Virus record (IMG/VR): IMGVR_UViG_2695420403_000002
Span: 1-6,116 of that record
Source of the DNA: a virus
Taxonomy: Duplodnaviria > Heunggongvirae > Uroviricota > Caudoviricetes
Reading direction: 5' to 3' (one strand)
DNA: 6,116 bases
In this document: piece after piece, positions 4,197-4,550 of the stretch
Position numbering within the stretch: position 1 is the stretch's first letter
Layout: each line of letters begins with the position of its first letter
The notes under the pieces: model-generated
Seen by the model: the letters and a program-made list of their open reading frames with translations, nothing else
Told to the model about the DNA's origin: nothing
The model's database searches: none
Translations under genes and position numbers: made by a program

Positions 4197-4550
4197 ATGC
4201 AGATACTAAATTCCCAGCGTAAAGCTTTCCTGGATATGGTGGCATGGTCAGAAGGAACGGATATCCGGCAGATGCTCTTTAAGGCTCTGCTGGGCTGGAA
4301 CCCGGAAGCGTGCGGTAACCCGATTACCTATGACGGCGGCACGCTGCTGGATCTGAATCGTCATGAGCTGATTTATCAGTTCGATTTTTCGATCATCAGC
4401 GAGCTGACCGAAGACGATACCCGCCAGCAGGATGATCTGAACAGTCTGGATGAACTGCAAACGCTGGCGATTGATGTTGATTATCTCGAGCCCGGTAACG
4501 GGCCTGACGGCGATATCGAACATCACACCGAAATAACCCTTCCTTCCTGA
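4197..4550 (+). pseudogene. Endolysin (lambda R-type lytic transglycosylase) N-terminal fragment fused in frame to unrelated sequence
   Basis: First 22 residues MQILNSQRKAFLDMVAWSEGTD match the lambda R N-terminus MVEINNQRKAFLDMLAWSEGTD (recalled), including the catalytic-Glu context WSEGTD. Similarity stops at about nt 4263-4270. The remaining 95 residues are acidic and unlike lysozyme, and the ORF is 117 aa versus about 158 aa for lambda R. Confidence 0.5.

Follow-up and report, generated by a model that had tools for sequence, protein, structure and literature searches.

The open reading frame that directly follows the holin gene in the DNA analysed here raises the question of what has become of an endolysin gene that begins like gene R of phage lambda and then continues as an acidic sequence with no likeness to a lysozyme. 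The window, by which we mean the whole stretch of 6116 bp that was analysed, is an entire contig (CYDW01000037.1 of assembly GCA_001283865.2; locus L011), and the product of the reading frame has been deposited as 'phage protein [Escherichia coli]'. The comparisons given below make us highly confident that the frame is a chimeric pseudogene, composed of the following elements.

4185-4190, plus strand: Shine-Dalgarno motif AAGGAG, read from the sequence, 6 nt before the ATG at 4197
4197-4550, plus strand: chimeric ORF with an ATG start, 117 aa
4197-4263, plus strand: remnant of endolysin gene R, 22 codons and the first base of codon 23
4260-4264, no strand assigned: deletion junction J1, placed by three-way alignments with R and terminator genes
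4264-4550, plus strand: 3' part of a tail terminator gene (SfV orf9 family), codons 92-186 in the native frame and with the native stop

The other two forward frames are closed across 4197-4550 by 6 and 11 stop codons, and antisense shadow ORFs occur at 4248-4526 and 4396-4650. Residues 23-117 of the product contain 20 acidic residues (D/E) against 4 basic ones (K/R), and the computed pI of the whole product is approximately 4.05. In a sequence search of the whole PDB, residues 4-23 aligned to residues 4-23 of lambda lysozyme (PDB 1AM7 and 3D3D) with 17 of 20 positions identical and an E-value of about 1.6e-4, and no alignment to lambda lysozyme extended past residue 23. The initial annotation, which had described a lambda R signature followed by an acidic tail in the only forward frame free of stops, thus gave an accurate picture of the frame, and its estimate that R had been reduced to its first 22 codons proved exact, the match comprising 22 codons plus one nucleotide.

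At the DNA level, 66 of the 67 bases in 4197-4263 are identical to the R gene of the prophage in E. coli GPEC1209 (21 of the 22 residues), and the similarity breaks off sharply after base 4263. The GPEC1209 gene product, which was identified as R through the PDB sequence search and is without a Pfam-A hit at E ≤ 0.001, matches 1AM7 over residues 3-157 with an E-value of 1.6e-95. The AAGGAG motif is the native ribosome-binding site of R, identical in intact R genes, and since it has been kept, transcription of the late operon should always lead to translation of the chimera. The holin stop codon lies at 4191-4193, and the same succession of holin and R is found in the intact relatives. The chimera therefore shares with lambda R, a lytic transglycosylase, its start, its place directly 3' of a holin of the lambda S family and its own ribosome-binding site, but of the complete catalytic domain of some 150 residues that characterizes a lambda R-type endolysin (GH24/GH104) only residues 4-23 are represented. 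With residues 23-158, essentially the whole fold, missing, it is not to be counted as an endolysin.

The remainder of the frame derives from a tail terminator gene. DNA identity to terminator genes amounts to 98-99.8% from their codon 91 onward, and 94 of 96 residues are identical to the intact terminator of GPEC1209, a gene named 'phage tail terminator protein' by PGAP. The match to phage SfV starts at position 7058, which is codon 91 of orf9 (6788-7348, 186 codons), and codon 22 of the ORF starts at window position 4260, which puts the 3' part in the native frame of the terminator. Over the longer stretch 4260-6116, identity is 98.1-98.2% to the prophages of E. coli C1 and GPEC1209 and 97.5% to SfV. 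The 117 aa product was matched by the profile PF23840 (Phage_tail_terminator) at positions 96-141 of 150 with 30.4 bits, just above the cut-off of 27 bits, in comparison with positions 8-141 and 93.1 bits for the full-length GPEC1209 terminator. Residues 23-117 thus correspond to the C-terminal 95 residues of an SfV orf9/Mu-like tail terminator, followed as in the phage by the DUF2635 and sheath genes; the N-terminal 91 residues, and with them a full-length PF23840 domain, are lacking, and the assignment follows from descent and native synteny. A literature search on SfV returned nothing specific to orf9.

Judged from these alignments, the acidic tail is the natural C-terminus of a terminator. 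The suggestion in the initial annotation that the 3' part might be the C-terminus of a virion gene from the tail module was borne out (terminator codons 92-186). Its description of this part as foreign was not, as the sequence comes from a gene of the same prophage type. The search that it proposed against SfV-like genomes led to SfV orf9 from codon 91 (97.5% DNA identity), and the partial PF23840 match leaves its idea of a fusion standing against the possibility, which it had itself raised, that the product is a complete member of a known family.

From its sequence, the product is predicted to be devoid of muralytic activity, with 136 of the 158 residues of R lost. The catalytic Glu19 of lambda R falls within the 22 retained residues. 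Most likely the protein, consisting of the first 22 residues of R, none of its fold, and the C-terminal half of a terminator, is inert. In RefSeq, a 104 aa form of the chimera, with Met14 as its start (WP_077815796.1; window 4236-4550), goes under the name 'phage tail terminator protein'. This name hides a fusion fragment of R and the terminator and should be corrected.

Where exactly do the two parent genes meet? The trinucleotide GAT at 4260-4262 is common to both. The following A at 4263 agrees with R, which reads GATAAC, and with none of the terminator genes inspected, which read GATGTC in SfV, C1, GPEC1209 and four contigs, and GATGCC in one. From T4264 onward the sequence agrees with the terminator only. 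Codon 23 (ATC, Ile) is consequently a hybrid of AAC in R and GTC in the terminator. In line with this, the BLAST pieces overlap by 4 nt, at window positions 4260-4263. Alignment with an intact prophage that has both holin and endolysin, as recommended at the outset, thus places the breakpoint at 4260-4264. A microhomology of 3-4 nt at most points to illegitimate rather than homologous or site-specific recombination.

Megablast of window positions 3800-4800 against phages and 5426 complete E. coli genomes splits the query into two halves. The left half, up to 4263-4269, matches the holin and endolysin genes of lambdoid prophages and phages. The right half, from 4260, matches the terminator, DUF2635 and sheath genes of SfV-like prophages with up to 99.8% identity. 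No record in this search spans both halves. All close DNA relatives of the window are prophages and phages of E. coli or Shigella. The genes that flank the chimera in the window are as follows.

1827-2207, plus strand: Q-type late antiterminator (PF06530, Phage_antitermQ, E 2.6e-51, profile positions 1-118 of 118)
2238-3569, minus strand: KAP-family P-loop NTPase, 443 aa (PF07693, E 1.2e-70)
3582-3609, plus strand: candidate late promoter, from a consensus scan only (9/12 promoter match)
3693-3724, plus strand: terminator-like hairpin with an 8-pair stem and a T-run, about 85 nt after the promoter-like site
3867-4193, plus strand: intact holin of the lambda S family (PF05106, E 6.6e-25, profile positions 5-99 of 99)
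4559-4729, plus strand: intact DUF2635 gene, Mu gp38-like (PF10948, E 9.8e-17)
4713-6116, plus strand: tail sheath gene, Mu gpL-like, first 468 of 498 codons, running off the contig end

The Q gene, for which the gene caller gives a start at 1839, has the same position in the intact relatives and, lying upstream, is the regulator of the late operon to which the chimera belongs. The interval between Q and holin is a classic cargo slot of lambdoid phages, and here it is occupied by the KAP NTPase gene, which belongs to the prophage but has no share in the junction. Full-length similarity connects the protein with PDC-S20, a candidate defence family of PADLOC (E 3.2e-176), and the PifA and QatA models give weaker hits; a literature search on PDC-S20 found no paper. 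The same gene fills this slot in the intact GPEC1209 prophage, and E. coli C1 has a different ATP-binding protein there. The region 3582-3724 may be a Q-dependent late promoter and leader of the pR'/tR' type: positions 3623-3715 share 85% identity with a stretch of phage mEp460 located 5' of the cargo gene and lysis cassette of that phage, and the region has no match in Rfam. Scans of the window and of the junction region for Rfam families, tRNAs and inverted repeats gave nothing relevant. The holin is identical to that of the GPEC1209 prophage at 107 of 108 positions. On the other side of the chimera, the DUF2635 gene corresponds to SfV orf10, which is annotated as 'similar to phage Mu GP38'. 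The last gene has a product with recorded sheath Pfam families and is collinear with SfV orf11 and with the sheath gene of GPEC1209.

The gene order on both sides of the junction, including KilA-N, DUF968 and Q, is the same as in the GPEC1209 and C1 prophages. In GPEC1209 the order is KilA-N, DUF968, Q, the KAP NTPase (on the minus strand) and holin (327 nt), followed by R (477 nt), an Rz-type lysis protein, DUF6236, HNH, terS, terL, ymfR and portal. Behind the portal come an HK97 protease, the major capsid protein, a small ORF, a head-tail connector, a head closure protein and a neck-type ORF, and then the tail terminator (561 nt), DUF2635, sheath, tube, chaperone and tape measure. The C1 prophage has the same layout with different cargo. 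The prophage type thus combines lambdoid early, Q and lysis genes with an HK97-type head and a Mu-type contractile tail. The relatives also carry genes with the e14 names ymfR, YmfQ-family and pinE, names that mark this as the phage type of the cryptic prophage e14 of K-12.

The window is collinear with the GPEC1209 locus (L014) at 1411-5677 (95.3% identity) and 15261-17117 (98.2%). Within one and the same prophage, the positions of the two breakpoints lie 9593 bp apart in GPEC1209 and approximately 9.4 kb apart in C1, figures that stand for the deleted length and gene content as inferred from relatives, the best intact ones being about 95% identical on the left side. The 9593 bp interval encodes R, Rz, terminase, portal, protease, capsid, connector and neck genes. 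Both sides of the window are therefore collinear with intact members of the SfV/e14-like type, with essential genes falling in the gap, as is to be expected of a cryptic prophage. Since the relatives hold both parent genes in one prophage and in the same order, one internal deletion is sufficient to explain the fusion and no exchange between two phages is needed. Very probably, J1 marks the place where a single internal deletion occurred in a temperate E. coli prophage of the SfV/e14-like type. The initial annotation had proposed a recombination or deletion junction that destroyed the lysozyme domain. The end of the R match at 4263 agrees with this, and the event can now be specified as a deletion of about 9.4-9.6 kb.

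The meeting of a lambda-like lysis cassette and a Mu-like tail module at this very point, which had been noted at the outset, could also be read as a mosaic joint made by recombination of two phages. Such an exchange would fit the uneven identity to the best relatives, which is about 95% for the left side and 98-99.8% for the right. The two modules, however, already occur together in the same order within single SfV-like genomes, and GPEC1209 shares even the KAP NTPase cargo gene beside the holin. Uneven identity, moreover, is the normal mosaicism of lambdoid early and lysis regions, and a single deletion within the element is the more parsimonious explanation. We therefore regard a joint between two phages as very improbable.

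Under the deletion reading, recombination at the level of microhomology would have joined R after its codon 22 to codon 92 of the terminator, with the loss of approximately 9.4-9.6 kb between the two genes. The lost part would comprise the rest of R, Rz, HNH, both terminase subunits, portal, protease and major capsid, as well as the connector and neck genes and the first 91 codons of the terminator. In each of the two genes the break follows the first position of a codon, so that the reading frame is by chance preserved across the joint and runs on to the stop codon of the terminator.

A short contig of 6116 bp that ends in genes present in many E. coli prophages might of course be a chimera of two prophage regions produced by short-read assembly, and the megablast search of 3800-4800 found J1 in none of the 5426 complete E. 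coli genomes. In the GTDB species-representative genomes, too, the 36-nt junction was sought as an exact match and gave no hit. An exact protein look-up, however, retrieved the identical 117 aa protein from at least 15 contigs, which belong to five NCBI isolate assemblies, one ENA metagenome scaffold and several Logan assemblies, and J1 is also present in one IMG/VR contig. Besides the assembly of the window, GCA_002075205 is an example of a carrier. The carriers have up to 10 kb of consistent upstream flank, in which the S24 repressor, Cro, a replication gene, RusA, KilA-N, DUF968, Q, the KAP NTPase and the holin follow each other, and the copies are 99.3-100% identical to the window over 1-4779. 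The recurrence of one junction on at least 15 contigs from independent assemblies, with different projects, sources and assemblers, excludes misassembly. The 3-4 nt common to the two sides of the joint are, besides, far too short to mislead an assembler. The probability that we leave to an artefact is close to nil. J1 can thus be taken as a clean marker of a lineage formed by a small set of E. coli isolates, and it could serve in strain tracking.

On both sides the contig itself ends within prophage sequence, just before KilA-N (1-17) and with 30 codons of the sheath gene still to come (6116), which suggests that further related prophage copies in the strain interrupted the short-read assembly.

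What, then, can the element still do? The late region examined lacks a muramidase domain, Rz/Rz1, terminase, portal, capsid and connectors, and of the terminator only half is present. With Q, the holin and the ribosome-binding site of R intact, derepression and both transcription and translation of the late operon should still be possible. As judged from the gene content, the element would form no heads, package no DNA, complete no tails and degrade no cell wall. Induction would accordingly be expected to give no particles and no lysis driven by the element, and at most killing mediated by the holin. A holin without a working endolysin is what the initial annotation had predicted for the lysis cassette, and this prediction agrees with an intact holin gene (107/108) next to an R gene cut after 22 codons. 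The prophage copy is predicted to be dead and should not be scored as an intact or inducible phage.

Related copies have suffered further lesions. Eight of the ten loci shown (L004-L010 and L013) diverge from the window after base 4779, where a second deletion, J2, has removed 2394 bp (15781-18174 in L014 coordinates). J2 joins nucleotide 67 of the sheath gene to codon 67 of the tape measure gene in frame, which results in a 567 aa fusion (e.g. L005, 10517-12220). The window and L012 are without J2, their sheath genes reaching the contig end. No complete E. coli genome was found to contain J2. A terminus of IS100kyp (IS21 family) lies inside the baseplate gene P at 14115-14216 in L004 and at the ends of L005-L009 and L013, and gene P ends in these relatives after 177 of about 359 codons. 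In L004 and L007 the KAP NTPase is split into ORFs of 113 and 280 aa. Taken together, J2, the insertion of IS100kyp and the split NTPase give the usual picture of the stepwise erosion of a grounded prophage.

This erosion also bears on the idea that the element has been domesticated, either as a headless, tailocin-like tail cluster or as an SOS-inducible holin kill switch accompanied by the KAP NTPase. It is true that regulatory genes, Q and the holin are intact together with the native ribosome-binding site, that both deletions of the lineage are in frame and that the window copy retains at least 468 codons of the sheath. The likeness to R-type tailocins, in which regulators, a holin and contractile-tail genes likewise occur without head and packaging genes, is nevertheless superficial. 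A tailocin depends on a complete terminator, sheath, tube, tape measure and baseplate as well as on an endolysin, and neither a complete set of tail genes nor a working lysis cassette is found here. The terminator has been halved, nothing is left of the tail-completion and neck genes, and endolysin and spanin, which would be needed for the release of particles, have been lost by deletion. Most copies have, in addition, lost the sheath, tube, chaperone and part of the tape measure, and in most of them gene P is interrupted by the end of IS100kyp; two have a broken KAP NTPase. Finally, the element is confined to a narrow lineage and is absent from the 5426 complete genomes. Domestication is therefore extremely unlikely.

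An internal deletion as the origin of J1 also places the element beside a well-known case, since e14 of E. coli K-12 is itself an internally deleted cryptic prophage remnant. In both, internal deletions in an SfV-type prophage have left fragments and fusions together with surviving regulatory and cargo genes. The element differs from e14 in its breakpoints and in what it has kept, namely its early region, Q, the holin and at least part of the tail module. The finding is ordinary prophage decay of an already known kind, and its significance beyond annotation is small.

The two deletions of the lineage resemble each other in several respects. At J1 as at J2 the left breakpoint follows exactly nucleotide 67 of the 5' gene and comes directly behind GGATA, and the parent sequences read GGATA/AC in both R and sheath (the slash marks the breakpoint). 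Among the 28 plus-strand genes of L014, only these two have GGATA at nucleotides 63-67. The right sides both open with (T)CCGG, the sequence being ACGGATA/TCCGGCAG at J1 and ATGGATA/CCGGGCTG at J2 (window 4257-4269 and L005 10573-10591 were compared). The 10-mer GATATCCGGC at J1 recurs natively at 4679-4688 in the DUF2635 gene, 419 nt downstream. The segment deleted by J2 starts with ACCAGGCGGCG and ends with CGCCGCC, which provides a 7-bp GC inverted repeat (GGCGGCG/CGCCGCC) near its ends.

The likeness is probably a coincidence that was noticed after the fact. A scan of IMG/VR for other junctions, with GGATA followed by a base other than A, retrieved only one contig with a junction, the one carrying J1 and J2; the remaining hits were natural sheath variants with GAT AGC or unrelated sequence, and the scan gave no evidence of a hot-spot at the two left sites. 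In-frame fusion at both J1 and J2, which by chance would occur in 1/9 of the cases, could be read as selection for continued translation of the operon. All the same, it is improbable that a sequence-directed process (serial template switching within a single complex event, or a nuclease or recombinase with site preference) or selection for in-frame, translated fusions lies behind the likeness, which would matter only if it recurred elsewhere.

Several more specific causes were considered and rejected, on the basis of the junction sequences and of the known features of the systems concerned. A crossover by a serine invertase (Pin/Gin) does not apply, as the breakpoints are not located at a recombination core. 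The EcoRV site (GATATC) present at the junction is absent from the parental sequences at the breakpoints, Dcm/Vsr sites do not fit, and no IS is left at J1 or J2 that would speak for an IS-mediated adjacent deletion. The 90% cluster of the protein holds many terminator fragments of 72-104 aa, which had brought up the idea that codons 91-95 of the terminator are a recurrent breakpoint. On inspection, the 92 aa forms proved to be ordinary genes truncated at contig ends or at an N-gap, and the idea was given up.

Among the copies of the element, the metagenome-derived one (L006) differs from the window at 32 positions, 30 of which fall within 365-1686, in the genes for KilA-N and DUF968. Such clustering has the look of a patch brought in by recombination and not of evenly spread divergence; the chimera is unchanged in this copy.
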